Shown: positions 2,824-18,283, counted from the first letter of the stretch. The stretch is 23,908 bases of DNA from Gemmatimonadota bacterium (GCA_003221005.1 QHTZ01000107.1:1-23908), one strand, 5' to 3'. A program made the numbers and translations. Notes: a model not told the origin generated them from the letters alone.

Positions 2824-4395
2824 TTACCCTCGCGCCGCAGCCCGCCTGCCGTCACGGCGCTGCGCCCGCACCACCACCAGCATCCCCAGCCCCAAGGTCA
2901 CCACCATCGCGATCACCGGAGAGATGAAGGTCCCGGGCGGCGTCGGCTGGTCCAGGGCGAGGAAGTACCAGGTACTCAGCGCCATCCGCGTATCGCGCTC
3001 CGCGCTCGAGCCGTCCCACGCGAAGAACGCCACGGGGATGGCCCGGCCCACGGCGAACTGAAGTTCGTTCGCCGTATCGGCGGTCGCAAGGGTACGGGTG
3101 AAGACCACCCGCCACTGGCCGTGGTCCCACACCGCCCGCGCCGCCGGTCCGCTCGCGGGCGGCAGGGTGTCGAAGCGGTCGATTCCCCGGGCGAGGCCCG
3201 CCACTGCGCCCCGCGGCGCGCTGCGCCAGCGCCACTGGTAGACGGACCCCGAGTTCGACCCCATCAGGAAGTACGGCCGCTCCATCCCCTCGGGGATCTT
3301 CGGCGGAAACTGCACGGCCAGCTGATCGGGCCACGGCGCTAGGGTCTGCGGCCCCGAATCGTCGCTCGCCATCGTCTGGAGCAGTCGCCGCGTGTACTTG
3401 TTCCATCCTGTATCCGGGCTCTGCGAGCGGTCGTCCCAGGTGAGCCGCACCGCGATCGCGTTGCCGTTGTGCAGCGCCTGCACCCAGATCGCCGCCACCG
3501 CGGGCGCGAACCAACGCGGCTTGCGGATGATCTGGCCAACGAGCGGGAAGTAGTAGTCATCCACGCGGCTCCAGGCGGAGTCGTCTGGGGACACGGGCAG
3601 CGTGCCCGCGATCTGGCGCGCGTGAATCACATCCCGCACCTCGGGCGCCTTGGGCGGCGACAGGCTGCGCACGTACTGCGCCACCCGCCACAGTTGCTCC
3701 TCGGTGAGGAACTTCTGGTCGAGCAGGTCGGAGAACGACGGCATCGGCGTGCCGTCGAGCCCGGTCCGCAGCTGGCGGTAAATGTCTTCCGCCGTCGCGC
3801 CGCCGCGGAAGCGCCAGTTTTCGTGGAGGTCGGCTGCCAAGATCGGCTGCCCGGGATCGTCCTTGAGATCGGGGGCCGAGGGCCCATCGCCGCGCCCCTG
3901 GGGGCCGTGACACTTATAGCAATGGATCGAATCGTAGAACTGCCGCCCGACCCGGAGGGCTTCGGCACCCGTGCCACCGCCCGGCTCGCTCGAGAACTTG
4001 AGCAGCTGCGGGTGCTGGCTCGTGTCGCTGAAAAAAGACGAGAACGTCTTGAGGTACGCCATCACGTTGCGGCGCTCGCCGTCCGAGAGCCGCGTCTGCC
4101 ACGCGGGCATGGCGGTGCCGGGGAGCCCTTCGTCGATGGCGCGCATGAGGTCCGCGTCCGTGGGGAGCTGGCCGCTCGCAGTGGTGCGGATCTTGTAAAC
4201 TGCGCCGGTGAAGTCGCGGGGCCGCGGCAGCATGTACAGCGCGGCCACGCCCTTGCCGTCCCCGGTCTCCCCGTGGCAGCCGGCGCACCATTTCACATAG
4301 ACGGTCTTGCCGGCGGTGGTGTCTTGGGCGGACAGTCGCACAGTCGGACTGACGGACAGAAACACCGCCAGCGCGCCTATCAGTCCGACCCTCAT
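2824..4395 (-). CDS. Diheme cytochrome c fused to an ethylbenzene dehydrogenase gamma-like (EbdC/DOMON-type) heme b domain, with C-terminal TM anchor
   Basis: Start moved to ATG 4395 (MRVGLIG signal peptide, ATGA overlap). CAGCH...GLPGTAMP and CYKCH...GLDGTPMP; then RLTWDD, DQLAVQFP, YFLMG, WRVVFTR, AFFAWDG...ER...STWY; terminal TM helix. Confidence 0.85.
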   Translation of the reverse strand: MRVGLIGALAVFLSVSPTVRLSAQDTTAGKTVYVKWCAGCHGETGDGKGVAALYMLPRPRDFTGAVYKIRTTASGQLPTDADLMRAIDEGLPGTAMPAWQTRLSDGERRNVMAYLKTFSSFFSDTSQHPQLLKFSSEPGGGTGAEALRVGRQFYDSIHCYKCHGPQGRGDGPSAPDLKDDPGQPILAADLHENWRFRGGATAEDIYRQLRTGLDGTPMPSFSDLLDQKFLTEEQLWRVAQYVRSLSPPKAPEVRDVIHARQIAGTLPVSPDDSAWSRVDDYYFPLVGQIIRKPRWFAPAVAAIWVQALHNGNAIAVRLTWDDRSQSPDTGWNKYTRRLLQTMASDDSGPQTLAPWPDQLAVQFPPKIPEGMERPYFLMGSNSGSVYQWRWRSAPRGAVAGLARGIDRFDTLPPASGPAARAVWDHGQWRVVFTRTLATADTANELQFAVGRAIPVAFFAWDGSSAERDTRMALSTWYFLALDQPTPPGTFISPVIAMVVTLGLGMLVVVRAQRRDGRRAAARG

Positions 4396-5192
4396 TTCGC
4401 ACCGCCTTCGGCCTTCTCCCACGTCCGCGGCTTCCACCCGGTCTGATCGTACAGGAATAGGATCACCGCCCAGATCTGGCGCTCCGTGAGGAAGTCTTCC
4501 CAGCGCGGCATCGCCGAGTTCCAGGGCGTGCCCTCACGCGGCAGACCGGGCCCGCCCTTCGCAACCCGCCAGAAGACGAAGCTCTCGGTGAGCTGGGCGA
4601 TGGTCCCATTGTCCTGGAAGTTGGCTGGCAGCGGATTGAAACCGGCCGCGAAGTGTCCCAGACCATCCAAGTGATCCCCGTGACAGGGCAGGCAGTTCTG
4701 GTAGTAGATCTCCTTGCCGTAGGCCGTAAACGCGGCGAGCGACTCGGGCTGCTGGCGCAGCGGATTCTCGAGCCCGGTGAGCGTCATTGTCTTGCCGCGG
4801 AACGTGACCTCGGCGGGCGGCGCCGGATGGATCGAACGCAGGTTGGGGGGCGCCGCGACCGTCGTGCGCACCTGCCCGAACGTGACCCAGCCGACGAGCA
4901 GCGTGACGACCGCGAGCACCAGGATGCGCACGAGCCGCAGTCGCTGCTCGACCAGCATCGCCACGAGCGGCTGCTTGAAGAGCGCCCAGCGCTCATCGTT
5001 GTCGCTCACGTAAATCAGCACGCCGACTAGCACCGTGACCATGTACTGCAGCACGACGCTGCTCGGAACGAGCGAGCTGCCTGGCAGCAATGGCACCCCG
5101 TAGACGATGACGAGATACGCCAGCACCAGCAGCCCCAGGGCCTGCCAGAAGGGGTGGTCCAGGTAGCGCCGGAGGTTGGGCGAACGCGTCAT
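4392..5192 (-). CDS. Membrane-anchored monoheme cytochrome c (three N-terminal TM helices)
   Basis: Three hydrophobic segments, then CLPCH and distal Met in WNSAMP; coupled to both neighbours. Confidence 0.88.
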   Translation of the reverse strand: MTRSPNLRRYLDHPFWQALGLLVLAYLVIVYGVPLLPGSSLVPSSVVLQYMVTVLVGVLIYVSDNDERWALFKQPLVAMLVEQRLRLVRILVLAVVTLLVGWVTFGQVRTTVAAPPNLRSIHPAPPAEVTFRGKTMTLTGLENPLRQQPESLAAFTAYGKEIYYQNCLPCHGDHLDGLGHFAAGFNPLPANFQDNGTIAQLTESFVFWRVAKGGPGLPREGTPWNSAMPRWEDFLTERQIWAVILFLYDQTGWKPRTWEKAEGGAK

Positions 5193-6001
5193 TTGTGCCC
5201 CGCGAGGTATTGTACCAGCGCGTCGAGCTGGGCCGGGCTCATCATCGTCGCGAAGTTCTTCGGCATCACGCCGGCAAGGTTCTCAAAACCCTTCGTGATC
5301 GACGATCCCGGATCCACGATCTTCTGCCGGATCGACTGGGCGTCACGGCGCGAGCCGACGTGGGTCAGGTCGGGCGCCAGGGCTCCCCCCTGGCCGTCGA
5401 GCATGTGGCAGTTGACGCACCCGGCCTCTTTGATGATTGCCTTGGGATCGCTGCTCCCATGGGCGAAACCGCCACCCCCGCCACCCCCGCCACCCCCTGC
5501 CGCAGCGGCCCCTCCCCCGCCGGCCGGCGCCGCCTTCTGGATGTCGGCCCCCGTCACGTCCACCGTGCCCCCCTGCGACTCGAGGAACGCGATCACGGCC
5601 CAGACCTGGTCGGGCGGGATCAGCTTCGTAACCTGCGGCATGATGGGCTGGTAGCCAGCCACGACGTACGCCGTAGGCTGATCGAGGGACTCGTAGAGGT
5701 ACTGCTTGCAGCTCTTCCCCGGCTCGCGCTTGGCGCAGCGTTGGCCGATCGGCCCTGTTCCCTTCTCGTCCGTGAGCAGGTTCGGGGCGCGGGTGCCGAG
5801 GCCGTGACAGGCGACGCAGCCGCCGATGCCGTTGAACACCTTCTCCCCGGCGGCCACCAACTGCTCCGGCGTCGCGTTGGGACCGAGCGTGAGCTTCTGC
5901 GGCACTTCGGACTGCATCTGCGGGATCTTGTTGCAGATGACCGTATACACAAACAGCGTGCCGAGGACGATGCCGACGACCTTGAGGTTAGTGGCCCACA
6001 T
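5189..6001 (-). CDS. Membrane-anchored diheme cytochrome c with Gly/Ala-rich linker
   Basis: N-terminal TM; CVACH...PIMP; poly-Gly linker; CVNCH...APDLTHVG...GVMP. Confidence 0.9.
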   Translation of the reverse strand: MWATNLKVVGIVLGTLFVYTVICNKIPQMQSEVPQKLTLGPNATPEQLVAAGEKVFNGIGGCVACHGLGTRAPNLLTDEKGTGPIGQRCAKREPGKSCKQYLYESLDQPTAYVVAGYQPIMPQVTKLIPPDQVWAVIAFLESQGGTVDVTGADIQKAAPAGGGGAAAAGGGGGGGGGGFAHGSSDPKAIIKEAGCVNCHMLDGQGGALAPDLTHVGSRRDAQSIRQKIVDPGSSITKGFENLAGVMPKNFATMMSPAQLDALVQYLAGHK

Positions 6002-7700
6002 GCCGGCCTCCGCCCTCGCCTGACGACACGAACGTCGACTTCTCGGCGAGCCCGCCGAGCCAGAAGACGAACGCCACGAGACCGAGGAAGATCAGCACAC
6101 ACAGGCTGATCATCTGCGACGCGTACCCGAGCGCCGGGGTCGCGGCGTACTTGCTCGTGTCCTCCATCACCTGCCACACGTGCCAGTACTGGCGGATCCC
6201 GGAGCGGGCAAAGCCCATGAGTCCCATGAGCCAGGTGAACGTCACCGCGAGGATGAAGAGCGCATACTGGGAGCGCGGCGGCATCTTGCCCCACTGGATC
6301 TCCCCCACGGACTTAGCGCCCCGCGCCATGAGGACGTCGATCACGGTGACGAACAGGATGCAGCTCAACACGGCGAGCACCTGGTAGACGCTGAATCCGA
6401 TGCGCACGATCGCTTCGACGAAGTAACCCCGGATCCCGTAGAACAGCACGATCCCGGCCGCGATGACGAACATCGCCGTCTGGATGCGCGTCCCCGTCTC
6501 CGCCCAAGGGACGACGAGCTCCTTGTTGCCGCGCCGGTACATGAGGAACGACAGGAACGTGGTCAGGATCATCAGATTGACCGCCGTGTTCTTGGCGCTC
6601 ATGACGCCGAGGGCGCCGAGCAGCGGGTGGTGTGAGCCACCCATAGCGGCGAGCTCCTTCGAGTCCGCGATCATGGTGTGCGGCGTGCCCCACACGATCG
6701 CGCCCAGCACGAGGACCGTTAGCAGGTACTTGATGTAGGGGCGGAACCGTTCAGCGCCGGGGATGCGCCCCATGCCGATCCACAGGTAGTAGTTGCCGGC
6801 GAGGAACAGGACGGCGATGAGGAACGCCTGGATCACCCACAGCCAGCTCATGAAGCCGCCCATCATGGTGATCCCCATCGACTGGTCGTACTGGTACACC
6901 TCGCGGCCCAGCCAGTAGCCAGCGAAGGGCAGCACGATCAACGCGGAGATCGCGATGAAGTTGCCGACGTAGCCCATCCAGTCGTAGTGGGCGCGCTCCT
7001 CGTCGTTTTGGGCGGCGAGGAAGCGGTAGCTCGCGTACGCCGCGACAATGGCGCCGCCGAACACGACGTTCGCGATGAGCCGATGGACGTTAATCGGCAT
7101 CCAGGTGGCATTGGCGATGGCGTGCCACAGCTTGATGCTGCTCGGGTCCGTGGTGGAAGTGATGTCGCGCGGCGGCGTCATCATGTACGTCAGCCACGAG
7201 TTGGCGATCAGCATCACGATCGTGCCCCAGACGTTCAGCAGGATGCCGAGGGTCCAGTGGACCAGCTTGGCGCGACCGTACTTCCAGCGGTCCCACCCGT
7301 AGTAATAGAGGTAGAGGGTGAAGGATTCGAAGAAGAACAGTCCGGCGTACACCCACATGGAGGCCGCGAACACGGCCGTCAGGTACGCCCAGAACCGCGG
7401 GTACAGGGTTGCCAAGAAGAAGACGAGGATCGCCCCCCAGATCGCGGTCGCGCTGTAGGCCACGAGCAGCAGGCGGGTAAACTCCTTCGCGAGCCGGTCG
7501 TAGCGGGCTTCCTTGCCGAAGATCCCGATGGCCTCCGCCACCACGGCGAACATCGGCACGCCGAGCACGAAGGCGGCGAACATGAGGTGCACTTCCGCGG
7601 CGATCCAGACCGCCGCGCGGGCGCCGATGATGGGGAACTCGCCGTAGGCGCGCACGCTGTCGGCGGCGGCGGCAGTGAGGAAAAACAGACCGTCGGCCAT
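5988..7700 (-). CDS. Non-canonical cytochrome bd subunit I-like (CydA-like, 'bd-like') membrane oxidoreductase
   Basis: Polytopic membrane protein with CydA hallmarks: AEVHLMF (helix I His), FFFESFTLYLYYYGWDR, ANSWLTYMMTP, NVHRLIA (b558-type His) and IRQYW (variant of GRQPW). No recognisable Q-loop. Confidence 0.85.
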   Translation of the reverse strand: MADGLFFLTAAAADSVRAYGEFPIIGARAAVWIAAEVHLMFAAFVLGVPMFAVVAEAIGIFGKEARYDRLAKEFTRLLLVAYSATAIWGAILVFFLATLYPRFWAYLTAVFAASMWVYAGLFFFESFTLYLYYYGWDRWKYGRAKLVHWTLGILLNVWGTIVMLIANSWLTYMMTPPRDITSTTDPSSIKLWHAIANATWMPINVHRLIANVVFGGAIVAAYASYRFLAAQNDEERAHYDWMGYVGNFIAISALIVLPFAGYWLGREVYQYDQSMGITMMGGFMSWLWVIQAFLIAVLFLAGNYYLWIGMGRIPGAERFRPYIKYLLTVLVLGAIVWGTPHTMIADSKELAAMGGSHHPLLGALGVMSAKNTAVNLMILTTFLSFLMYRRGNKELVVPWAETGTRIQTAMFVIAAGIVLFYGIRGYFVEAIVRIGFSVYQVLAVLSCILFVTVIDVLMARGAKSVGEIQWGKMPPRSQYALFILAVTFTWLMGLMGFARSGIRQYWHVWQVMEDTSKYAATPALGYASQMISLCVLIFLGLVAFVFWLGGLAEKSTFVSSGEGGGRHVGH

Positions 7701-8977
7701 CAGCCGTCAGCCTCAGTGAAGAACGGCCGTCGCTTCGAGAAATCGACCGGTAGCGCGCTCCGAACCTCGGACAAGAGCTCCAGGGTCACCTCGCGCCCGC
7801 CGTGCCGTCGGGCGTACTCCTCCACGCGCTGCATCACCACGCCGCGTACGAACGAGGGAATCCGCTCGAGGCGCGCGAGCGCCGCGGGGCTCCAGCCGAG
7901 CGCCCGCCGGAACTCGGCGCCGTACGTCACGGCGCGCTGCGGCTCCACCAGCGGGGCGCCGACCCGCGGCTCGTAGGTGCACGACGGGTCGGCGGCGAGC
8001 ACGTCGCCGGTCGTGGCGAACGCCCGCGCCCGGCACCCGCCGCACAGCGCGCGGTACTCGCACACACCGCACTTGCCGCCGAGCGTTCCCTCGCGCAGCT
8101 GGCGGAACAGGGGGGCCTCGCGCCAGATCTCGCCGAACGACTGCCGGGATAGATCGCCCGCGACCTCCGGCAGGTAGGGGCAGGGCGTGAGCTTGCCGTC
8201 GGGCGTGATGCGGCAGTACTGCGTGCCGCACGGGCAGCGCGTCTCGTAATTGAGCACCGGCGACTCGGGATCGGCCGCGTGCACGTGCCGCATGAAGTGC
8301 GGCGCGCACTTGGAGCGCACGAGCATGGTCCCGCGGTAGTCGCGCTGCCAGCGCGCCAGGTCGGCGAGCACTGCTTCATACTCCGCCGGGGGAAGGTCGG
8401 AGAGCCCGGCGCCGCGCCCGGTCGGCACCAGGAAATAGCAGTTGAACGCCACGGCCCCTTGCTCGGCGGACCAGGCAACGAGGCGCTCGAGCTCGGCGCG
8501 GTTGCCCTTGGTCGCCGTGGTCTGGATGATGAAATCCAGGCGCCGCTCCCGGAGCCGGGCGAGCGCGCCCTGCGTGTCGGCGAGCGAGCCCCGACCGTGC
8601 CGGAAGTTGTCATGATAGGACGGGCGCAGCGAATCCACGCTTACCGCGACGCCGCGCACGCCCGCGTCCTGCAGCGCCGCGATCCGGACGTCGGTGAGCA
8701 AGGTGCCATTCGTCCCGACGACGACCGTGGCACCACGCTCGGAGGCATAGCGCGCGATCTCCGTCAGGTCCTCCCGGAGCAGCGGCTCGCCGCCCGACAG
8801 GATCAGGAGCGGGGCGGGGTTCTCCGCCAGGAGCTCGTCCACGATGCGCCGGCAGGTCGCCGTGTCGAGCTCGGCGGTGGCGCGCTCGCCGGGTCCCGCC
8901 GAGATGTAACAGTGAGCGCACTCGAGGTTGCAGCGCCGAGTGAGATTCCACGCGACGACGTGGGGCACGTAGCTCAC
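7700..8977 (-). CDS. Radical SAM/SPASM protein, AhbD/NirJ-like, with C-terminal PCP_red-like domain
   Basis: WNLTRRCNLECAHCY, SGGEPLLR, KCAPHF, SPASM cysteines CPCG...PCPY...CGVC...CGGC...DPSC; tail WSPAALARLERIPSFVRGVVMQRVEEYA...VT. Confidence 0.88.
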   Translation of the reverse strand: MSYVPHVVAWNLTRRCNLECAHCYISAGPGERATAELDTATCRRIVDELLAENPAPLLILSGGEPLLREDLTEIARYASERGATVVVGTNGTLLTDVRIAALQDAGVRGVAVSVDSLRPSYHDNFRHGRGSLADTQGALARLRERRLDFIIQTTATKGNRAELERLVAWSAEQGAVAFNCYFLVPTGRGAGLSDLPPAEYEAVLADLARWQRDYRGTMLVRSKCAPHFMRHVHAADPESPVLNYETRCPCGTQYCRITPDGKLTPCPYLPEVAGDLSRQSFGEIWREAPLFRQLREGTLGGKCGVCEYRALCGGCRARAFATTGDVLAADPSCTYEPRVGAPLVEPQRAVTYGAEFRRALGWSPAALARLERIPSFVRGVVMQRVEEYARRHGGREVTLELLSEVRSALPVDFSKRRPFFTEADG

Positions 8978-8978
8978 G

Positions 8979-10961
8979 TCAGTCGCCTGCCTGCTCCCGC
9001 AACAGCCGCTCCACAGCCTCCTTCGCCTGTTCGGGCTTCACCCCTTTGAAGTCCACGGGGCACTTGCCCATCTTCTCCTCGATATCGCGGATCGGGCAGC
9101 GCGTGATCCCTTGCGCCTTCGCGTCTTCGATGAACGCGCGCATCTCGGGAGTCAACCCGTCCCGTCCTTCGGCTTCGGCGCGGATCTGCTTCGCGCGCAA
9201 CTCGGTGAACATCACCATCATCGTCTCGACGTCGAACTCGTCCGCCTCGATCATCTGCTGCTTGTTGTCGTCCATCACGCGGGTGGTGACGCGCCAGATG
9301 TCGTGGTTGCGGGCAAAGCGCTCCACGGTGTTGCGCGCGAGGGGCCGAGCCACGAGCGGGACGAGCTGCAGGCGCTGCCACGCCTCTTCGGTCCAGACGA
9401 TGGGATCGGTCGCGACGCGCGGCCGGCGGCTCACGGTGCCCGTCACGGGACACTTCGTCTCCACCTCGGCCGCGACCGGCTCGGCGTCCGAGTCGTGACC
9501 CTGGATCTTGGTCACCTTCAGCTGCTCCGTCGCCTTCACCTCCGCGAGCGCGATCTCTTCCGCCGTCCCGATCCCCATGATGAGCTGCATGTGGGTCGGC
9601 AGCAGCTTCCGGATCGCCTCGTCGAGCCACTTGTTGGTGACCGTCGCCTCAGCGCCGCCGGTCTGCTCCAGCACGTACTCCTCCACGGCGCGGCGCGCGA
9701 TCCCCTGCGCGAACGGGGGGACGCGGAGGATGCGCACTTCCGCCTCGGGCGCCCACGGCATCCCCGCCTGGCCGTCCTCCTCGATCCAGGGGATGTCTTC
9801 GGGACGGATCCCCACCGTCCCGGTGAGCAGCGTGTTGCAGGGGGCGATCCGCACCAGGTTTTCAGCCTGGGACCCGAGGTCCGTGCCCTCGATGCGATGG
9901 GCCCCGTGCCGCGCCAGCACGAGCAGCGACGGCTTGATCTCCTCGGCCCACTGCATGATCACCTGGAACGGCTTGCCGATCAGGATCTGCGTCTTGATGG
10001 GGACGTCCGGAAATTCCTGGGCCATCACCTCGGCGCGCTTCAGGTTCGCCTGGCAGAGCTTCAGCAGCCCCTTGTCGATGATGTTGTTGTGCAGCTCTTC
10101 CTGCTCCTCGAACTTGAAGACTTTGGACGCCTGGTACGACAACACGTCCTTGATGTTGTGGAACACCACATGGTGGTACTCCACGTCGAACGCGCTGCAG
10201 ACGTAGAGGGATGCGCCGAACGTCTGGGCCAGCTCGAGCGCGGCGCGCATCGCCTTGTAGCTGTAGGAGGAGCCGTCCACGCACACCAAATAGCGGCCGT
10301 CCGCAAGCGGCCGGTCGTCGCGGACGATCAGCACGTCCTTCTCGACCTCGCGCAGCACGCGCGCCACCACTCCGCCGAGCTGCGAGAACGGCTGCCGCCC
10401 GAGCCCGTGCGCGCCGATCGCCAGCAGGTCGTACTGCCGGCCCGAGGATCCCACGAGCCGCGCCGCCGAATCCTCGTCCTCCGCGATCAGCCGCCCGTTG
10501 GCGCCGACCTGCACGTCGCCGCGCACTTTGTCGCCGCCGTCGTACCCCGCGGCGCGATTGGGATCGAAGCCGATCAAGCCGGGAAGCCGGCCGGCGCCGC
10601 GGTTCACCTCGTTCACGATCTCTTCGTAGTTGATTCCCTCGAGCAGCTGGCGCGTCAACGGCACCCCGGCTTCCTCGCAGTGCTTCCCGAGCCGGTCGAG
10701 GAAGCTGTCCGCGATCAGCTGGAGGCCCTTCTCGATGAGCTTGTCGTGGATCTTGCGCTGTTTCTTGATCTCTTCGGCGGTCTGGAACCGCGCGGGCAGG
10801 CCGGTCTCGAGCTGGCGAAAGCGGACGTCGTGCAGGCGGGCCGCATACACGTGGTTGCCGATGATGCGGCCGTGCGACACGCGACACAACTCGATCGCCC
10901 GGTCGACGGCCCAATCCGAATGCTGCGAATTGTCGACGGGGGCGAAGATCTCGCGGTACAC
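8979..10961 (-). CDS. Tandem universal stress protein domains plus two PCP_red-like domains and a CP-motif tail
   Basis: Start reassigned to GTG 10961 (MYREIFAPVDNS, SD GAGGT). USP1 DLLAIGAHG...LGG; USP2 YLVCVDGS...LLVLARHG...LGS; two PCP_red-like repeats (WAPEAEVRILRVP, WTEEAWQRLQLVP). Confidence 0.85.
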   Translation of the reverse strand: MYREIFAPVDNSQHSDWAVDRAIELCRVSHGRIIGNHVYAARLHDVRFRQLETGLPARFQTAEEIKKQRKIHDKLIEKGLQLIADSFLDRLGKHCEEAGVPLTRQLLEGINYEEIVNEVNRGAGRLPGLIGFDPNRAAGYDGGDKVRGDVQVGANGRLIAEDEDSAARLVGSSGRQYDLLAIGAHGLGRQPFSQLGGVVARVLREVEKDVLIVRDDRPLADGRYLVCVDGSSYSYKAMRAALELAQTFGASLYVCSAFDVEYHHVVFHNIKDVLSYQASKVFKFEEQEELHNNIIDKGLLKLCQANLKRAEVMAQEFPDVPIKTQILIGKPFQVIMQWAEEIKPSLLVLARHGAHRIEGTDLGSQAENLVRIAPCNTLLTGTVGIRPEDIPWIEEDGQAGMPWAPEAEVRILRVPPFAQGIARRAVEEYVLEQTGGAEATVTNKWLDEAIRKLLPTHMQLIMGIGTAEEIALAEVKATEQLKVTKIQGHDSDAEPVAAEVETKCPVTGTVSRRPRVATDPIVWTEEAWQRLQLVPLVARPLARNTVERFARNHDIWRVTTRVMDDNKQQMIEADEFDVETMMVMFTELRAKQIRAEAEGRDGLTPEMRAFIEDAKAQGITRCPIRDIEEKMGKCPVDFKGVKPEQAKEAVERLLREQAGD

Positions 10962-11118
10962 CGGCACCTCGGACGCTAGGGTGCATGCCGGGCACACACC
11001 AATATCTCCCCGAGCCTGGATCGGGTTCGGTCCTATCGAGATAACGCCTGGTGTTATGCTCGGCCGCAGCGGCCGTCAGGCCGCCGCACGATTATCGAGT
11101 CTCGCTTACGCGCCGGCG

Positions 11119-11147
11119 AGTATGGCCAGCGCGGCGGGGCCTGTCAA
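11119..11147 (-). promoter_or_regulatory. Sigma70-type promoter for the USP-to-cox operon
   Basis: Minus strand TTGACA (11147-11142), 17-nt spacer, CATACT (11124-11119). Confidence 0.75.
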
Positions 11148-11150
11148 GTC

Positions 11151-11408
11151 TTAAATCCCGACTCTACTCGGGACAATTTGTCGGCCGGTTTCGTCCCACA
11201 CCGTGATGGCGTCGACGGGGCAAGCATCGCAGGCGCGCAGCAACCGCTCCCGCTCCACTGCCTCCGGCTCGACGAACGCGGCGATCGAGTCTTCGTCCAA
11301 CTTGAAACCCTCTGGCGCGTCCTTCACGCAATCGCCGAACCCGACGCACTGGTCGCGGTCGATGACGACGCGCAGACCATGGACGACCCGCTCCACGAGG
11401 CGACTCAC
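11151..11408 (-). CDS. Monocluster ferredoxin, probably [3Fe-4S]
   Basis: GTG 11408 overlaps the upstream stop (GTGA); 85 aa; IDRDQCVGFGDC...ACDACPVDAI, with the second Cys of CxxCxxC replaced by Phe. Confidence 0.88.
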   Translation of the reverse strand: MSRLVERVVHGLRVVIDRDQCVGFGDCVKDAPEGFKLDEDSIAAFVEPEAVERERLLRACDACPVDAITVWDETGRQIVPSRVGI

Positions 11409-11857
11409 ATCCCCTCGAGACCGAGCTCCGCGCGGGCGGTATCCATGACCGCGGGCGTGATTTCGGCGATGCCGTGGTCCTTGGCGTACTCGGCGTAGAT
11501 CTTCTTCACCATTCCCCGCACGAAGCCCGGCACCTGCGACAGGCGCTGCTGCGCCTCCGCGGACCAGCTGGGGCCAGCGGTCCGCGCCTCCGCCCGCCCG
11601 CTCGCTTCGTCGAACGCGTCCGGTCGCCCGCCGGCGACGTTGCCGCGCACGGTCTCGAGCGGCTGCGCCGGCACGGTCCGCCCGCCGATCACGACGCCCA
11701 AGGAGCTCACGAGCTGCGTCTCGAATGGGTTGGTGAGGAGAGCCGTCACCCGGCCGCAGCTCGGGCACTTGAAGGCCGCGGCAAGAGTTCCGTCTCCCGG
11801 GAGCTGGCGCTCCTCGAACACCATCTGCCGGTCGCACTCGACGCAGAGAAATTTCAT
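11405..11857 (-). CDS. Zn-ribbon (CxxC...CxxC) plus PCP_red-like domain protein
   Basis: ATG 11857 overlaps the mrp stop; MKFLCVECD...FKCPSCG; C-terminal WSAEAQQRLSQVPGFVRGMVKKIYAEYAKDHGIAEITPAVMD. Confidence 0.8.
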   Translation of the reverse strand: MKFLCVECDRQMVFEERQLPGDGTLAAAFKCPSCGRVTALLTNPFETQLVSSLGVVIGGRTVPAQPLETVRGNVAGGRPDAFDEASGRAEARTAGPSWSAEAQQRLSQVPGFVRGMVKKIYAEYAKDHGIAEITPAVMDTARAELGLEGM

Positions 11858-12636
11858 AGGCGCGCGGCGAGCGTCTCCCAGACACCGACCGGGGGGTGAA
11901 ATGGGACGCGCGCCAGCACCGGGACCCCAAACTCCCGCGCGAGGACCTCGGCCGCGTCGCCGCGGAACTGATCCCCCATCATGTTCTCCACGACGCCGAG
12001 AGGGGTCGCGCCCCGTTCCATCGCCGCGCGCAATGCGCGCCGCACGGCGTCGCGCGACTCGGGGGTCGGGATGGTCACGGTCAGCACGGCCGGAGGGCGG
12101 TCGAGCAGGTCCGCGAGCTCCTCGAAGCGCGACAGCCCGGGCGGCAGGTCGACCAGCAGCAGATCGAGTGACCCCCAGGCCACGTCGGCGAGGAACTCGC
12201 GCAGCGCGGCGGCCTCCAGCGCGCCGCGCCACACGAAGCGGTCAGCGGCGGGGCCCCGAAACGCCAGGGGGCGGCCGTCCTCGAGCAGCAGGTCCATGGA
12301 AACAAGCCGCACGCCGTCCGCGCCCGTAGCCGGCAGCACCGCGTCTTCCTCGACGACCAGCGAGGCCCGCCCCGCATCGAGCAATCCCGCTGCGGTGGGC
12401 CCGTTCAAGTCGGCGTCGAGCACGCCGACCGCCCGCCCTCCCCGCGCGACCGCGCGTGCCAGGTGCGCCGTGACGAAGCTCTTTCCGACACCCCCTTTGC
12501 CGCTCATGACGGCGACCACGCGGCCCACCTGAGCGAGGCGCGCGGCCACGCGGTGGCGCTGCGCGCCGATCTGCGCCGGGAGGCCCGACGCGTCGGGCTC
12601 CGTCAGGTCTCGATACGTCCGGATGTTGAGTGGCAC
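11854..12636 (-). CDS. Mrp/ApbC/NBP35-family P-loop ATPase, cysteine-free variant
   Basis: Deviant Walker A SGKGGVGKS, DADLNGP, VWRG, WGSLDLLLVDLPPG, GVVENM. Confidence 0.88.
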   Translation of the reverse strand: MPLNIRTYRDLTEPDASGLPAQIGAQRHRVAARLAQVGRVVAVMSGKGGVGKSFVTAHLARAVARGGRAVGVLDADLNGPTAAGLLDAGRASLVVEEDAVLPATGADGVRLVSMDLLLEDGRPLAFRGPAADRFVWRGALEAAALREFLADVAWGSLDLLLVDLPPGLSRFEELADLLDRPPAVLTVTIPTPESRDAVRRALRAAMERGATPLGVVENMMGDQFRGDAAEVLAREFGVPVLARVPFHPPVGVWETLAARL

Positions 12637-13174: not shown

Positions 13175-13298
13175 GCGCCTACCGCCTGACCCTGCCCACT
13201 TGACGAAGCCATTGTAAAGTGCCACATACGTTTGAGGTATAAGCCCGGCGCAACCCTAGGCGCGCCGGTACGTTGTGGTCACAGAGCGCGGAGGCCGA

Positions 13299-14120
13299 AT
13301 GGCGTGGCGCACCGAGGCTGAAGAAGAGCGTTTTTCGTTTACGCCGTTCACGCGGCATCCCTTCTTCACCGAGGTGAATCGCTGGATCGTCGAGCGCGTC
13401 ATCTGCCCCAGCCGCCGTACGATCGTAGACCTGGGCTGTGGGCCGGGGGCCGTGACCCAGCTGATCGTTGACCGCTTGAGTCAGTGCGGCGAGGGCCGGG
13501 TCATCGGGATTGACCCGTCGGCATCGGCGCTCGAGAAGGCGCGGCGCGCGATCCGGTCGCGCGTCGCGGAGTTCGTGGAGGGGAGCGCGGAATGGCTGTC
13601 GCGCCTGGTCCCCTCGGCCGATGCGGTCATCTTCTGTAACGCCATCCACCTCGTCCCCGACAAAGCCAAAGTCATCGCCGAGATCCGCAAAGTCCTGAAG
13701 CGCGGCGGTGTGCTCGCGTTCAATACGACGTTCTTCAACGGCGCCTACGTCGAAGGGACGACCGGCTTCTGGCGCCGCTGGGTGGTGCGCGCCGTGCAGG
13801 TGCTGCGCGAGCACGGCATCGCGGTGCAGCACGAGGGCAAGGCCACAGCTCGGTCGTTCCTCTCGGCCGACGAGTACGCCACCTTGTGCGAGCACGAGGG
13901 GTTCAGCCCGCCCACGGTCGAGCTGGTGCGAGTCGAGATGACCCCCGAGAGCCTGGAGGACATCGGACGCTTCTCCCTGTTCATCGAGGGCGCCTTGCCG
14001 GGCGTCCCGCTCGAGCAGGGGGCGGAGGCGCTGCGCGAGGGCTTACGGCGCGCGCTCGACGAGACCGGGTTCAGCACGGTACCGCGCAACTGGCTTGAGT
14101 GTGTAGCCGTCGCGTCCTGA
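13299..14120 (+). CDS. Class I SAM-dependent methyltransferase
   Basis: SD GGAGG (13290-13294) then ATG 13299; motif I IVDLGCGPG, IGIDPS, VLKRGGVLAF. Confidence 0.88.
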   Translation: MAWRTEAEEERFSFTPFTRHPFFTEVNRWIVERVICPSRRTIVDLGCGPGAVTQLIVDRLSQCGEGRVIGIDPSASALEKARRAIRSRVAEFVEGSAEWLSRLVPSADAVIFCNAIHLVPDKAKVIAEIRKVLKRGGVLAFNTTFFNGAYVEGTTGFWRRWVVRAVQVLREHGIAVQHEGKATARSFLSADEYATLCEHEGFSPPTVELVRVEMTPESLEDIGRFSLFIEGALPGVPLEQGAEALREGLRRALDETGFSTVPRNWLECVAVAS

Positions 14121-15413: not shown

Positions 15414-16019
15414 CTACTTCTTGGCGGCGGCGAAGTAGGGGTTTGAGCCTGCCGAATGATCCGTGATGTCCACGATGCCTTTGACGCCCGGCACGTGCTG
15501 GTGCAGCATCGCTTCGATACCCTGGCGCAGGGTCACGTCGGCCATGCCGCATCCCTGGCAGCCTCCGCCCATCCGCAGCATCACGACGTGGTCTTGCACG
15601 TCGATCAGCTCCACGACGCCGCCGTGCCGTGCGACCATGGGATTGACCTGGGTCTCAAACAGTCGCGAGACCCGCTCGTACAGTTCGTCGTCGTCCGCCG
15701 GCGTGCCTGGGGGCGCTTGCCGGGGGGCGACCGCGGGCGCACGGGCCGCGAGCGCCGCACGGATCGCCGCGCCGACCGCCGGGCCAAGCGCCGCCCAGGG
15801 CGTGGGGCCGCGCTTCACGGCGGTGACCAGGTGACCCGACACGACGACCTCGGTGATTCCCGGGATCGCGAACAGCGCCTCGGCGAGGGGCGAGCCCTTG
15901 GCGTCCTCGGGCGACGCGAACCGGCGCACGCCGCCCACGTGCACCGGCTGGCCGACGATGAACTTGCAGCGATCGTTGTCGATCGGCTCGGCGGTGATGC
16001 GGACGTCTGCGGTGCTCAT
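15414..16019 (-). CDS. Nfu-type Fe-S carrier (Nfu N-terminal domain plus NifU-C domain)
   Basis: ATG 16019; SPLAEALFAIPGITEV; VNPMVARHGGVVEL...MGGGCQGCG...DITDH. Confidence 0.9.
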   Translation of the reverse strand: MSTADVRITAEPIDNDRCKFIVGQPVHVGGVRRFASPEDAKGSPLAEALFAIPGITEVVVSGHLVTAVKRGPTPWAALGPAVGAAIRAALAARAPAVAPRQAPPGTPADDDELYERVSRLFETQVNPMVARHGGVVELIDVQDHVVMLRMGGGCQGCGMADVTLRQGIEAMLHQHVPGVKGIVDITDHSAGSNPYFAAAKK

Positions 16020-16023
16020 GAAA

Positions 16024-18283
16024 TCAAGTATGCCCGGCCCGCTCTCGCGGGTCAACCGCGCGCCCCACGAGCGCCCCCGTCGCCGCCCGCATCTCCCGGG
16101 CCGCCTCGACCATGTTGCGGAGCGACGGCAGCGTCTCGGTCCAGCCGCGCGTCTTGAGGCCGCAATCCGGGTTGACCCAGATCTGGCGGTCGTCGAGCAC
16201 CTCCCGCATCCGTGTCAGCCCCGCCACGATCTCCGCGGTGCTCGGCACCCGGGGAGAGTGGATGTCGTAGACCCCGGGTCCGATTTCGTTGGGATACTTG
16301 TACTCCCGGAACCCTTCCAGCAGCTCGGACCGGGACCGGGCGTTCTCGATCGAGATGGCGTCCGCGTCCATCTGCTCGATGACGCGAATGACGTCGTTGA
16401 ATTCGCTGTAGCACATGTGCGTGTGGATCTGCGTCTCGTCCTTCACGCCGGCGGTCGCCAGGCGGAAGGCGTTGACCGCCCAGTCCAGGTACGCGGCCCA
16501 GTCGGCGCGGCGCAGCGGCAGCCCCTCGCGCAGCGCCGGCTCGTCGATCTGGATGACCCGGATGCCCGCGCTCTCGAGGTCCTGCACCTCGTCGCGAATC
16601 GCGAGCGCCAGCTGCTTCGCCGTCTCCGAGCGCGGCTGGTCATCGCGCACAAACGACCACTGAAGAATGGTCACCGGACCGGTCAACATCCCCTTGACCG
16701 GCTTCTTGGTCTGGGCCTGAGCGAACGTGCTCCAGCGGACCGTCATCGGCCGCGGCCGCGACACGTCGCCGCAGATGATCGGCGGCTTGACGTAGCGCGT
16801 CCCATAGGACTGCACCCAGCCGTGCTCCGTGAACGCGAATCCGTCCAGCTGCTCCCCGAAGTACTCCACCATGTCGTTGCGCTCGAACTCGCCATGGACC
16901 AGCACGTCGATCCCGATGTCCTCCTGTAGCCGGAGCGTCTTCCGGATCTGCTCCTCGATGAAAGCGTCGTAGGCGGCGGGCGTCAGCTTTCCGTCAGTCA
17001 GCTGCCGCCGGGCGGCGCGCACCTCCGCAGTCTGCGGGAACGAGCCGATGGTGGTCGTCGGGTAGAGCGGCAGCGCGAGCTGCTTGCGGCGCCGCGACGC
17101 GTACGGCGACGCCCGGCGCAGGTCTCGCTCGCCCACGGCCGCAGCGCGCCGCTTCACCGCCGGATTGTGAATCCGCTGCGACGCGCGGCGCGCCGCCAGC
17201 GCCCGCGCGTTGTCCTCGAGCTCGGCGGACGCGCGCCCGCGCCCCGCACCCAGCGCACGCGTCAGCGTGGCTACTTCGGCCAGCTTCTGCTTCGCGAACG
17301 CGAGCCACCCCCTGAGCTCCGCGTCGAGCCGCTGCTCGAGGTCGAGGTCGATTGGCACGTGGAGCAGCGAGCACGATGGCGCGACCCAGATAGACTCGGC
17401 TCCCACCCGGTCGCGAGCGCGCTCCAGCAGGGTCAGTGCGGCGGCGAGGTCGGCCTTCCAGACGTTCCGCCCGTCGACGACCCCGAGCGACAGGACCCGT
17501 CCCGTGCCCGCGGGCCACGCCTCGAGCAGCGGGTCCAACTGTCGCGGCGCGCGCACCAGATCGACGTGCAGGCCGTGCACGGGGAGCGAGACGACCGTCC
17601 GCAGGTTGTCGTCCAAGCCCGCGAAGTAGGTGGCGAGGAGCAGCTTAGCCTGCGGTACCCGCTGGGCCAGGAAGGCGTAGGTCTTGCGATACGCCTCCCG
17701 TTCCGGCTCGGTCCGGTCGAGCGCCAGGCACGGCTCGTCGAGCTGCACCCACGTCGCCCCGGCCGCCACCAGGCGGCTCAAGACCTCCGCGTACACCGGC
17801 AACAGCCGGTCCAGCAGCTCGAGACGGTCGAAGCGCGCGGTGCGCGCCTTTCCGAGCGTGAGGAACGTCACGGGCCCGATCAGCACCGGCTTCGTGGTGA
17901 TGCCCAGGGCCTTCGCTTCCTGGAACTCGTCGATCGGCTTGTGCGATGCCAGCCGAAACGCCTGGTCACGATCAAACTCGGGGACGATGTAGTGGTAGTT
18001 CGTGTCGAACCACTTCGTCATCTCCATCGCCGTGACGTCTCGGCCACGCTGTTGCGCGCCGCGCGCCATCGCGAAGTAGGTGTCCAGATCCACCTGCCCC
18101 CCACCCCCACCGTAGCGTGCCGGAACGGCGCCGACCAGCGCGCAGGTGTCCAGGACGCGGTCGTAGAAGGAGAAGTCGTTCGATGGAACGAGATCCATCC
18201 CGGCGGCGCGCTGCAGACCCCAGTGCGCCGCACGCAGCTCGCCGCCCACCGCGCGCCGCTCGGTCAGTGTGAGAGAGAGGCAT
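16024..18283 (-). pseudogene. metE: Cobalamin-independent methionine synthase, apparently frameshifted by a 5' internal deletion
   Basis: Body is intact (MTKWFDTNYHY, TTTIGSFPQT, HTHMCYSEF, WVNPDCGLKTR). ATG 18283 encodes MPLSHT in a different frame from the body, and the GFPRIG...RELK...YW segment is absent. The metE identity is secure; pseudogene status is less so. Confidence 0.72.
16027..16055 (-). promoter_or_regulatory. Sigma70-type promoter, probably giving a leaderless nfu mRNA
   Basis: TTGACC (16055-16050), 17-nt spacer, CATACT (16032-16027), 7 nt before the ATG; no SD. Confidence 0.7.

Follow-up and report, generated by a model that had tools for sequence, protein, structure and literature searches.

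PCP_red domains around an AhbD-like radical SAM enzyme of Gemmatimonadota: a candidate heme-handling module

A stretch of 23,908 nucleotides from a Gemmatimonadota bacterium (GCA_003221005.1, QHTZ01000107.1:1-23908; hereafter the window) carries three neighbouring genes whose products contain, between them, four PCP_red domains. The analysis indicates that these four domains belong to a conserved accessory set around a putative AhbD-type coproheme decarboxylase (heme b synthase). The enzyme is of a known kind; the PCP_red-based accessory set is novel, and the evidence points to a widespread, so far undescribed heme-handling module. As to its mode of action, we tentatively propose an oxygen-independent coproheme decarboxylase whose partners would use PCP_red as tethered adaptors, the Cys-Pro linkers beside them serving as transient heme holders; we give this proposal slightly less than an even chance.

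The route of heme from the last biosynthetic enzyme to bacterial respiratory complexes is poorly understood. To our knowledge, no role has been assigned to PCP_red since the domain was defined. No prior description of a PCP_red/radical SAM module was found in the literature searched, outside of which lay the supplements of bd-superfamily and comparative-genomics papers. In the available parts of the main texts, the term 'radical SAM' is absent from the Murali preprint, PMC10839748 and PMC12342949, and the latter two also lack 'universal stress'.

PCP_red domains and the enzyme they accompany

An earlier note on this DNA had placed PCP_red-like domains at four sites on three neighbouring proteins by means of a sequence pattern, and had suggested a hidden Markov model scan with Pfam PCP_red (PF08369; curated gathering cut-off, 32.5 bits). 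The scan matched all four sites within the ranges given there, and the pattern was correct. The three proteins scored between 54.4 and 56.4 bits: the radical SAM protein at residues 362-406 (E value 1.3e-14, 54.4 bits; domain at 7745-7924, Pfam core 7760-7894), the tandem universal stress protein (USP) in two stretches, the best being residues 535-578 (8.9e-15, 54.9 bits; domain envelopes 9600-9785 for copy d1 and 9249-9425 for copy d2), and the open reading frame (ORF) of the Zn-ribbon protein (2.9e-15, 56.4 bits; domain at 11417-11596, Pfam core 11432-11566). Window coordinates are those of the minus strand unless stated. By six-frame scanning of the genome (2.79 Mb, 93.9% complete), matches were detected at 11432-11566 (57.4 bits), 7760-7894 (56.4 bits), 9264-9395 (42.2 bits) and 9663-9755 (29.5 bits), all on the minus strand, and no other PCP_red match was present in the genome. 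The last of these, USP copy 1, covered profile positions 1-31 only and, taken alone, stayed under the cut-off; even so, it has 76% identity with its positional counterpart in a Longimicrobiales relative, and 34-37% with USP copy 1 from other lineages.

The earlier statement that chlorophyll genes are lacking held for the genome, which has only the four module PCP_red matches and no Oxidored_nitro (BchB/BchN-type) gene. NCBIfam models of BchB matched just the last 60-80 residues of the window proteins. Since no gene for a nitrogenase-like component 1 was found in the genome, the organism, which the names of near-identical proteins place in the Gemmatimonadales, has PCP_red without dark-operative protochlorophyllide oxidoreductase (DPOR). 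Matches by sequence in the PDB were the C-termini of BchB/ChlB (2XDQ_B, 3AEK_B, 2YNM_D) and two stand-alone domains. In the AlphaFold2 model of the Zn-ribbon protein, residues 95-150 were folded (predicted local distance difference test, pLDDT, about 96), and this part was superimposed by VIA on 2KRU with Z 8.6 and a root-mean-square deviation of 2.0 over 58 residues, and on 2L09 with Z 5.7. Below these two, the VIA wide search gave AAA+ lid-like and DP1/p68 N-terminal helical bundles at Z 4-5. In the model of the radical SAM protein, the PCP_red helices lie at residues 364-370, 375-391 and 399-408.

Identity among the four copies is 22-33%, the invariant residues being W, A, R, P and T. Each copy is nearer to its positional counterpart in other lineages (up to 86% identity) than to its sisters of the same genome (20-42%); for USP copy 1, the identity between lineages was 46-86%, as against 20-42% to the sister copies. 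Likewise, copies 1-4 of the proteins consisting of PCP_red only pair one to one between lineages. As judged by these comparisons, the PCP_red copies are ancient positional orthologs, not interchangeable repeats. Such old and differentiated copies fit fixed and distinct roles, and this is the sound core of the idea of a docking 'code' raised in the earlier note. Every PCP_red context seen so far appears to be a tetrapyrrole system, namely BchB, the BchZ-type protein and the present module.

The radical SAM/SPASM protein (7700..8977, 425 amino acids; Pfam Radical_SAM, SPASM and PCP_red) was matched over its full length by the NCBIfam models NirJ2 (292.6 bits, 4.7e-87) and AhbD (290.5 bits, 2e-86), both of which have a cut-off of 500 bits. 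Models of peptide maturases were far weaker, at 1e-43 and above. For the relatives from other lineages, the AhbD model gave 272-335 bits. The radical SAM motif CX3CX2C was read from the sequence at C16/C20/C23, and the auxiliary-cluster motif CX2CX5CX2CX17C at C303/C306/C312/C315/C333; across 46 homologs, these motif cysteines show little or no variation. The latter motif is given for the auxiliary cluster of AhbD in the part of the review that was available (PMC10114771). The genome has a single AhbD-like gene, and no AhbC/NirJ-type paralog was found in it. The AlphaFold2 model of the enzyme was rigid, with a pLDDT of 89.7 and a predicted template modelling score (pTM) of 0.89, except for the tail of residues 410-425, where pLDDT was below 50. 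Foldseek search of this model against the PDB gave generic SPASM enzymes, PqqE, SkfB, SuiB, CteB and anSME, with no AhbD or NirJ structure among the matches; the likeness to PqqE, SkfB, SuiB and CteB concerns the shared SPASM core only. Taken together, the sequence features indicate that the radical SAM protein is likely an oxygen-independent heme-making enzyme.

The predicted disordered tail of the enzyme (7703-7750) is conserved: its motif (M/L)P(V/I)DFSKR.PFF is kept in 68 of 72 relatives. The end of the USP protein, KCPVDFK, resembles this motif, and the tail and the USP end may share a short docking motif.

The window breaks inside CoxA. In a genome of the same genus (G005), the corresponding run consists of CoxB, CoxA, COX3, COX4, heme O synthase (273 bits against a cut-off of 210), a 115-residue ORF, ChdC-Rieske, HemE, ferrochelatase and a HemY-like oxidase. 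Another contig of the present genome, C56, carries the CoxA C-terminus, COX3, COX4, heme O synthase, ChdC-Rieske and the start of HemE, and its proteins are 71-91% identical to their G005 counterparts. C56 therefore continues the G005 order, and the window is merely interrupted by the contig end. The ChdC/HemQ-like decarboxylase of this run (358 amino acids; L176:9187-10263 in G005, L179:272-1345 on the minus strand of C56) has a C-terminal Rieske [2Fe-2S] domain and is located between heme O synthase and HemE, directly 3' of the oxidase genes; it scored 123.9 bits with HemQ_actino (cut-off, 235). ChdC-family genes were found in 11 of 15 module-positive and in 9 of 26 module-negative relatives. 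As the operon of this genus runs into coproporphyrin-dependent heme genes, the supply of ordinary heme b is no less likely a role than that of a special cofactor for the bd-like complex. In proteobacteria, hemN is often clustered with cbb3 oxidase genes, a possible precedent. As described in the accessible parts of three papers, AhbD occurs in coproporphyrin-pathway organisms without other Ahb enzymes, as an anaerobic alternative to ChdC (PMC13564367, PMC10114771, PMC7242693). Given this distribution and the heme gene context, heme b supply at low oxygen is the most economical reading of the enzyme.

Conservation within and beyond Gemmatimonadota

The gene set is arranged on the minus strand in the order Mrp-type ATPase, Zn-ribbon protein, ferredoxin, a gap of 154 nucleotides, tandem-USP protein, radical SAM/SPASM enzyme, CydA-like protein, three c-type cytochromes, CarboxypepD_reg-like protein, CoxB and the start of CoxA. 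In 80 loci of named Gemmatimonadota genomes, this 12-gene order was conserved as far as the contigs extend. By tblastn, the USP gene was detected in all 80 loci, the radical SAM gene in 75, CydA-like in 71, Zn-ribbon in 70, Mrp in 66 and CoxA in 49. The PCP_red proteins thus share one conserved gene set with Mrp and ferredoxin, as had been supposed before. Exceptions were three loci. In L039, labelled Acidobacteriota, the 9.9 kb downstream of the radical SAM gene gave no CydA-like match; in L047, an insertion of about 3 kb parts the USP gene from the radical SAM gene; and in L077, the radical SAM gene is located upstream, displaced from its usual order.

Co-occurrence with the bd-like gene was examined in two samples. 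Within the order, PCP_red was detected in 16 of 41 genomes, and 15 of these have an adjacent bd-like gene; the bd-like gene was present in 15 of the 41 genomes, identical to the 15 with the module. The sixteenth genome (G024) has two BchB/BchZ-type copies instead of the module. Within the phylum, PCP_red was found in 67 of 201 genomes and a strong bd-like ortholog (E below 1e-260) in 59, all 59 being among the 67. Of the remaining eight, two carry the module at a contig edge and six show the high-scoring pattern of one or two copies as in G024, a pattern inspected in G024 only, where it consists of a BchB-like frame and an Oxidored_nitro plus PCP_red frame. When the genomes flagged as unpublished were left out (G020 from the order sample and G199 from that of the phylum), the counts were 14/14 and 58/58. 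Because kin are not independent, this co-occurrence represents one conserved gene block, not many separate associations. In the Gemmatimonadota samples, the radical SAM PCP_red enzyme was always accompanied by USP-PCP_red.

The second PCP_red match of the phototrophic relatives was considered as a module member and ruled out, as it belongs to an Oxidored_nitro protein. PCP_red matches in these relatives are BchB-type or lie in one Oxidored_nitro plus PCP_red protein of BchZ type; in G024 (L177:266-2356), the second copy forms the C-terminal part of an Oxidored_nitro protein whose gene comes after another of the Oxidored_nitro type (BchY/BchZ-like). This BchZ-type copy indicates that PCP_red is not limited to BchB among the nitrogenase-like enzymes.

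A profile made of the four copies matched 1583 representative clusters at E up to 0.001. The best 150 of these included 42 USP-type, 11 radical SAM-type and 97 PCP_red-only proteins, with 1-5 copies each; among the same 150, the Cys4 motif was found in 13 USP-type and 18 PCP_red-only proteins. Pfam analysis of the first 60 of the 150 confirmed the three architectures, some with a rubredoxin-like RUBY_RBDX module; other lineages thus fuse USP, PCP_red and a rubredoxin-like Cys4 module in one chain. Named members came from Nitrospinota, Ca. Manganitrophus, Ca. Anammoxibacter and Dormibacteraeota/Chloroflexota, and the ESM Atlas look-up added clusters of the small PCP_red protein from Chloroflexota and Nitrospirota.

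We then considered 80 metagenome loci, picked by likeness to the Manganitrophus protein, 12 of which were annotated with Pfam. The USP gene was followed by the radical SAM gene in 49 of the 80; a CydA-like match of the Gemmatimonadota type (tblastn) and Mrp were each found in 7. No Cyt_bd_oxida_I gene was present in the available DNA of 9 of the 12 annotated loci from outside Gemmatimonadota. L162 contains the full Gemmatimonadota gene set in a different order, and in L151 and L157 USP-PCP_red is joined to Rieske, cytochrome b and bd-like genes. In the nine loci without bd-like gene, a small CopD/DUF4149-like membrane protein was often seen after the radical SAM gene; the match exceeded the Pfam cut-off in L096 and L140, whereas in L105, L112 and L143 it was weak (E about 1e-5). 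These proteins of 146-175 amino acids occupy the place of the CydA-like gene (L096:15213-15674, L140:12092-12538, L105:13520-14035, L112:13586-14098 and L143:13559-14005). The loci outside Gemmatimonadota indicate that the constant core is USP-PCP_red plus the AhbD-like enzyme, the bd-like link being strong in some lineages only. The co-occurrence with bd-like genes expected in the earlier note was therefore observed in Gemmatimonadota (15/15 and 59/59) but is lineage-specific, a bd-like gene being present in 3 of the 12 annotated loci from elsewhere.

Cys-Pro linkers, proposed heme hand-off and alternative readings

The USP protein (8979..10997) consists of 672 amino acids, with PF00582 (Usp) matched over three stretches (105.1 bits against a cut-off of 24) besides the two PCP_red copies. 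Within Gemmatimonadales, the identity of its homologs is 87-100%, as against about 34% across phyla, and at least 574-579 relatives were found in each of two scans. Three Cys-Pro motifs are present, at C516 (9450-9452), C634 (9096-9098) and C646 (9060-9062), and exactly three were counted in 73 of 78 Gemmatimonadota USP proteins. Cys-Pro statistics were drawn from the 150 best representatives of the 1583 clusters. An isolated cysteine of the linkers was followed by proline in 71 of 166 cases, the proline fraction of the linkers being 5.5%; the control values were 12 of 140 in N-terminal cores and 2 of 73 inside domains. The residue after Cys-Pro was F, V, I or Y in 55 of the 71, a histidine was located up to 4 residues away in 21 of the 71, and the modal position was 9 residues before the start of PCP_red. 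CP motifs are the best-known heme-regulatory motifs, according to the portion of the source that was available (PMC6356037). The present Cys-Pro, enriched in linkers whose exposure is judged from their position, resembles these motifs in its sequence pattern.

The following sequence of events is proposed. Where O2 or H2O2 does not suffice for the co-encoded ChdC, the radical SAM protein would make heme b from coproheme. The PCP_red that it carries itself may be a fixed part of the enzyme, while the copies of the USP and Zn-ribbon proteins, on flexible linkers, would act as adaptors bringing partners to the synthase. The USP protein would be the scaffold, and the Cys4 module may relay electrons together with the ferredoxin. 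The Cys-Pro motifs beside the adaptors would transiently hold the tetrapyrrole, so that the finished heme is passed to oxidases and not released. In a wider and rather doubtful form of this proposal, PCP_red plus an upstream Cys-Pro might be the unit of an unrecognised, widespread bacterial heme-trafficking system, in which multi-copy USP-PCP_red and Cys4-PCP_red proteins would carry heme (or coproheme) from the oxygen-independent AhbD-like synthase to heme proteins of the membrane, the bd-like OR-N oxidases and small CopD/DUF4149-like proteins. Such a system would span Nitrospirota, Nitrospinota, anammox bacteria, Chloroflexota and Gemmatimonadota. If true, the orphan C-terminal domain of BchB and BchZ would gain a role as tetrapyrrole hand-off adaptor.

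Several observations weigh against the proposed heme hand-off or restrict it. The AhbD equivalog cut-off (TIGR04545, 500 bits) was not reached by the radical SAM protein (290.5 bits), and relatives from seven other lineages scored 272-347 bits with equivalog cut-offs of 500; such scores indicate a separate subfamily, the substrate of which may differ. With ChdC present, an AhbD-type reaction is redundant unless oxygen decides which enzyme works. No heme genes were found near the annotated loci outside Gemmatimonadota, nor an oxidase gene in 9 of the 12. Direct binding by the domain is disfavoured by the alignment of the four copies, in which no conserved Cys, His, Met or Tyr was detected, and the fold matches other than PCP_red itself are generic three-helix bundles at Z 4-5, common arrangements. 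As to Cys-Pro, the sequences counted are related by descent, so that their independence is overstated; the motif stands at the fixed spacing in just one of the four window copies, and none was found within 60 residues of a relative's BchB-type copy.

The earlier note had proposed a dedicated cofactor-maturation system for the bd-like complex. In this reading, the set would make or insert a special cofactor (a modified heme, for example) for that complex, with PCP_red as a docking code for its assembly. We consider this unlikely, even though the association in Gemmatimonadota is strict in both occurrence and adjacency (15/15 and 59/59; CydA-like in 71 of the 80 loci), and the radical SAM stop and the CydA-like start have one base in common. 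A second lineage, L162, has the same gene set in another order, USP-PCP_red stands beside bd-like, Rieske and cytochrome b genes in L151 and L157, and the lineages with the module are those for which OR-N bd-like oxidases are described in the available part of the Murali preprint; moreover, the missed AhbD cut-off leaves room for a different tetrapyrrole chemistry. These points are countered by the loci outside Gemmatimonadota, 9 of the 12 annotated being without bd-like gene in the available DNA and merely 7 of the 80 giving a CydA-like match, and by the same operon encoding an aa3-type oxidase and an ordinary heme pathway. In three genomes, a second bd-like paralog is located away from the module; these paralogs are 51-52% identical (G084:C8:63892-65715, G108:C93:221-2053 and G147:C1:2114142-2115986). 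A shared, differentiated domain on a tetrapyrrole-linked gene set remains from that proposal, but its restriction to the bd-like complex was too narrow, the constant partner being the AhbD/NirJ2-like enzyme.

Of similarly low probability is protein docking without tetrapyrrole contact, by which PCP_red tethers would recruit Fe-S or electron helpers (Mrp-type ATPase, ferredoxin and Cys4 module) to the cluster-rich radical SAM enzyme, much as the B and Z subunits of nitrogenase-like enzymes work with a P-loop ATPase partner. It agrees with the translational coupling that links Mrp to the small PCP_red protein in the window, L162 and L164, with the adjacency of the two genes in L140, with all PCP_red carriers being, or being fused to, Cys-rich metal modules, and with the lack of conserved ligand residues in the domain. 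The tethered two-domain architecture and the location of PCP_red in BchB, at the extreme C-terminus after a low-complexity linker, point the same way. The Mrp of this clade, however, has lost its CxxC motif: the window Mrp is without any Cys, and an 11-residue deletion at the C..C site was found in this protein and its 11 closest aligned relatives, whereas 30 of 32 other rows keep C..C. The window Mrp may have ceased to carry an Fe-S cluster. Mrp is also absent from most loci outside Gemmatimonadota (found in 7 of 80), and docking alone leaves unexplained both the Cys-Pro enrichment and the restriction of the domain to tetrapyrrole systems. More improbable still is that USP-PCP_red is a heme or oxygen sensor, with Cys-Pro as heme-regulatory motifs that tune the synthase or the oxidases and do not carry heme. 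CP motifs are classically regulatory (PMC6356037, as far as available), a promoter-like site is located directly 5' of the USP gene, and, in the accessible part of one study, USP proteins by low-oxygen-induced operons rose most in Nitrospira marina at low O2 (PMC8115632). No DNA-binding or signalling output domain was detected with Pfam or NCBIfam, and the multiple differentiated PCP_red copies and the Cys4 fusions look structural.

The heme hand-off proposal may be compared with known systems. DPOR BchB/ChlB and the BchZ-type subunit belong to the same Pfam family and share the fold (2KRU, Z 8.6), and in either setting a flexible linker leads to the small helical unit, with which the tetrapyrrole enzyme ends. 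Unlike these, the present genome has no nitrogenase-like body, the domain is spread over three proteins with up to 5 copies per protein by our profile, and the copies are often preceded by Cys-Pro, whereas the BchB-type copy is not. In BchB, an earlier helix (398-420), not PCP_red, contacts the substrate in trans, as given in the available parts of two reports (PMC12022308, PMC4071322). With AhbD/NirJ2 the present enzyme has in common the similarity over the full length, both cysteine motifs and the SPASM architecture, and, with AhbD, a genome having the coproporphyrin pathway and no other Ahb enzymes; it differs by its score of 291-293 bits with a cut-off of 500, by the extra PCP_red and conserved disordered tail, and by travelling with USP-PCP_red in Gemmatimonadota. 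RiPP recognition elements (RiPP, ribosomally synthesized and post-translationally modified peptide) are PqqD-like domains common to several enzymes of one pathway. PCP_red is likewise a small domain on several proteins of one pathway, a SPASM radical SAM enzyme among them, and by analogy its repetition would enable each of these proteins to recognise one common partner or substrate; the fold is different, and there is no precursor peptide. Heme-regulatory motifs share with the present ones the isolated Cys-Pro, the hydrophobic residue, the often nearby His and the predicted flexible linkers, but the present Cys-Pro is placed at fixed spacing before a folded domain and is repeated in a biosynthetic module. 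HemW, a radical SAM-like heme chaperone, is cytoplasmic and hands heme to a membrane respiratory enzyme (PMC10114771, in the part available); it is a functional precedent for a heme hand-off step, and homology to PCP_red, USP or Zn-ribbon proteins was not seen, although no test aimed at it was made.

Among the carriers of the module are nitrite oxidisers, manganese oxidisers and also anammox bacteria, whose bd-like oxidases are described as still uncharacterised in the accessible part of PMC10839748. The electron acceptor of AhbD is unsettled, and its proposed electron path is said to need further study in the part of PMC10114771 that was available. The module supplies soluble, expressible parts for direct tests of both heme hand-off and the electron partner of AhbD.

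Gene layout and neighbouring genes of the window

The reading frames were chosen by family matches because the G+C content of the window is high (64-73%). The first gene of the set encodes the Mrp/NBP35-type P-loop ATPase (11854..12636; Pfam ParA/NUBPL, 150.9 bits), which scored 141.7 bits with NCBIfam MrpORP, below the cut-off of 450. Its stop overlaps the start of the gene for the Zn-ribbon plus PCP_red protein (11405..11857, 150 amino acids). The latter protein, aligned with 37 homologs, has four Cys at residues 5, 8, 31 and 34 and a disordered linker at 66-92; its AlphaFold2 model (pLDDT 77.6, pTM 0.39) suggests two folded domains on a floppy tether. Next is a small single-cluster 4Fe-4S ferredoxin with a GTG start (11151..11384; Pfam Fer4_13, 44.1 bits).

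In the 154-nucleotide gap 5' of the USP gene, motif scanning gave a sigma-70-like promoter match, TTGACA-17-CATACT (11119..11147), with 10 of 12 positions matching; one site was found, against 0.1 expected in shuffled sequences. No Rfam family was detected in the window, including the leader of about 110 nucleotides at this site. With such a match between the ferredoxin and USP genes, the gene set may be transcribed as two units, one of Mrp, Zn-ribbon and ferredoxin and the other from USP onwards.

The CydA-like (bd-like) membrane protein (5988..7700, 570 amino acids) was matched by Pfam Cyt_bd_oxida_I (68.7 bits) and by no NCBIfam family. It is followed by three c-type cytochrome genes (5189-6001, 4392-5192 and 2824-4437; Pfam and NCBIfam), the third of which also has an EB_dh heme b domain. 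This CydA homolog with its c-type cytochrome genes may belong to the OR-N type, which is described in the available part of the Murali preprint and in which c-cytochrome or other electron-donor genes share the operon of the CydA homolog. Further downstream are the genes for the CarboxypepD_reg-like protein (2039-2770; Pfam), CoxB (1276-2025; NCBIfam CoxB, 156.7 bits against a cut-off of 147.7) and the N-terminal part of CoxA (2-1390; Pfam), inside which the contig ends. Two further genes lie a few kb upstream of the set: one, at 15414-16055, encodes a NifU/Nfu-type Fe-S scaffold protein, and the other, at 13275-14120 on the plus strand, a class I methyltransferase, for which the best NCBIfam match was the DVU_1556 family, below the cut-off. 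These two genes are separated from the PCP_red set by greA.

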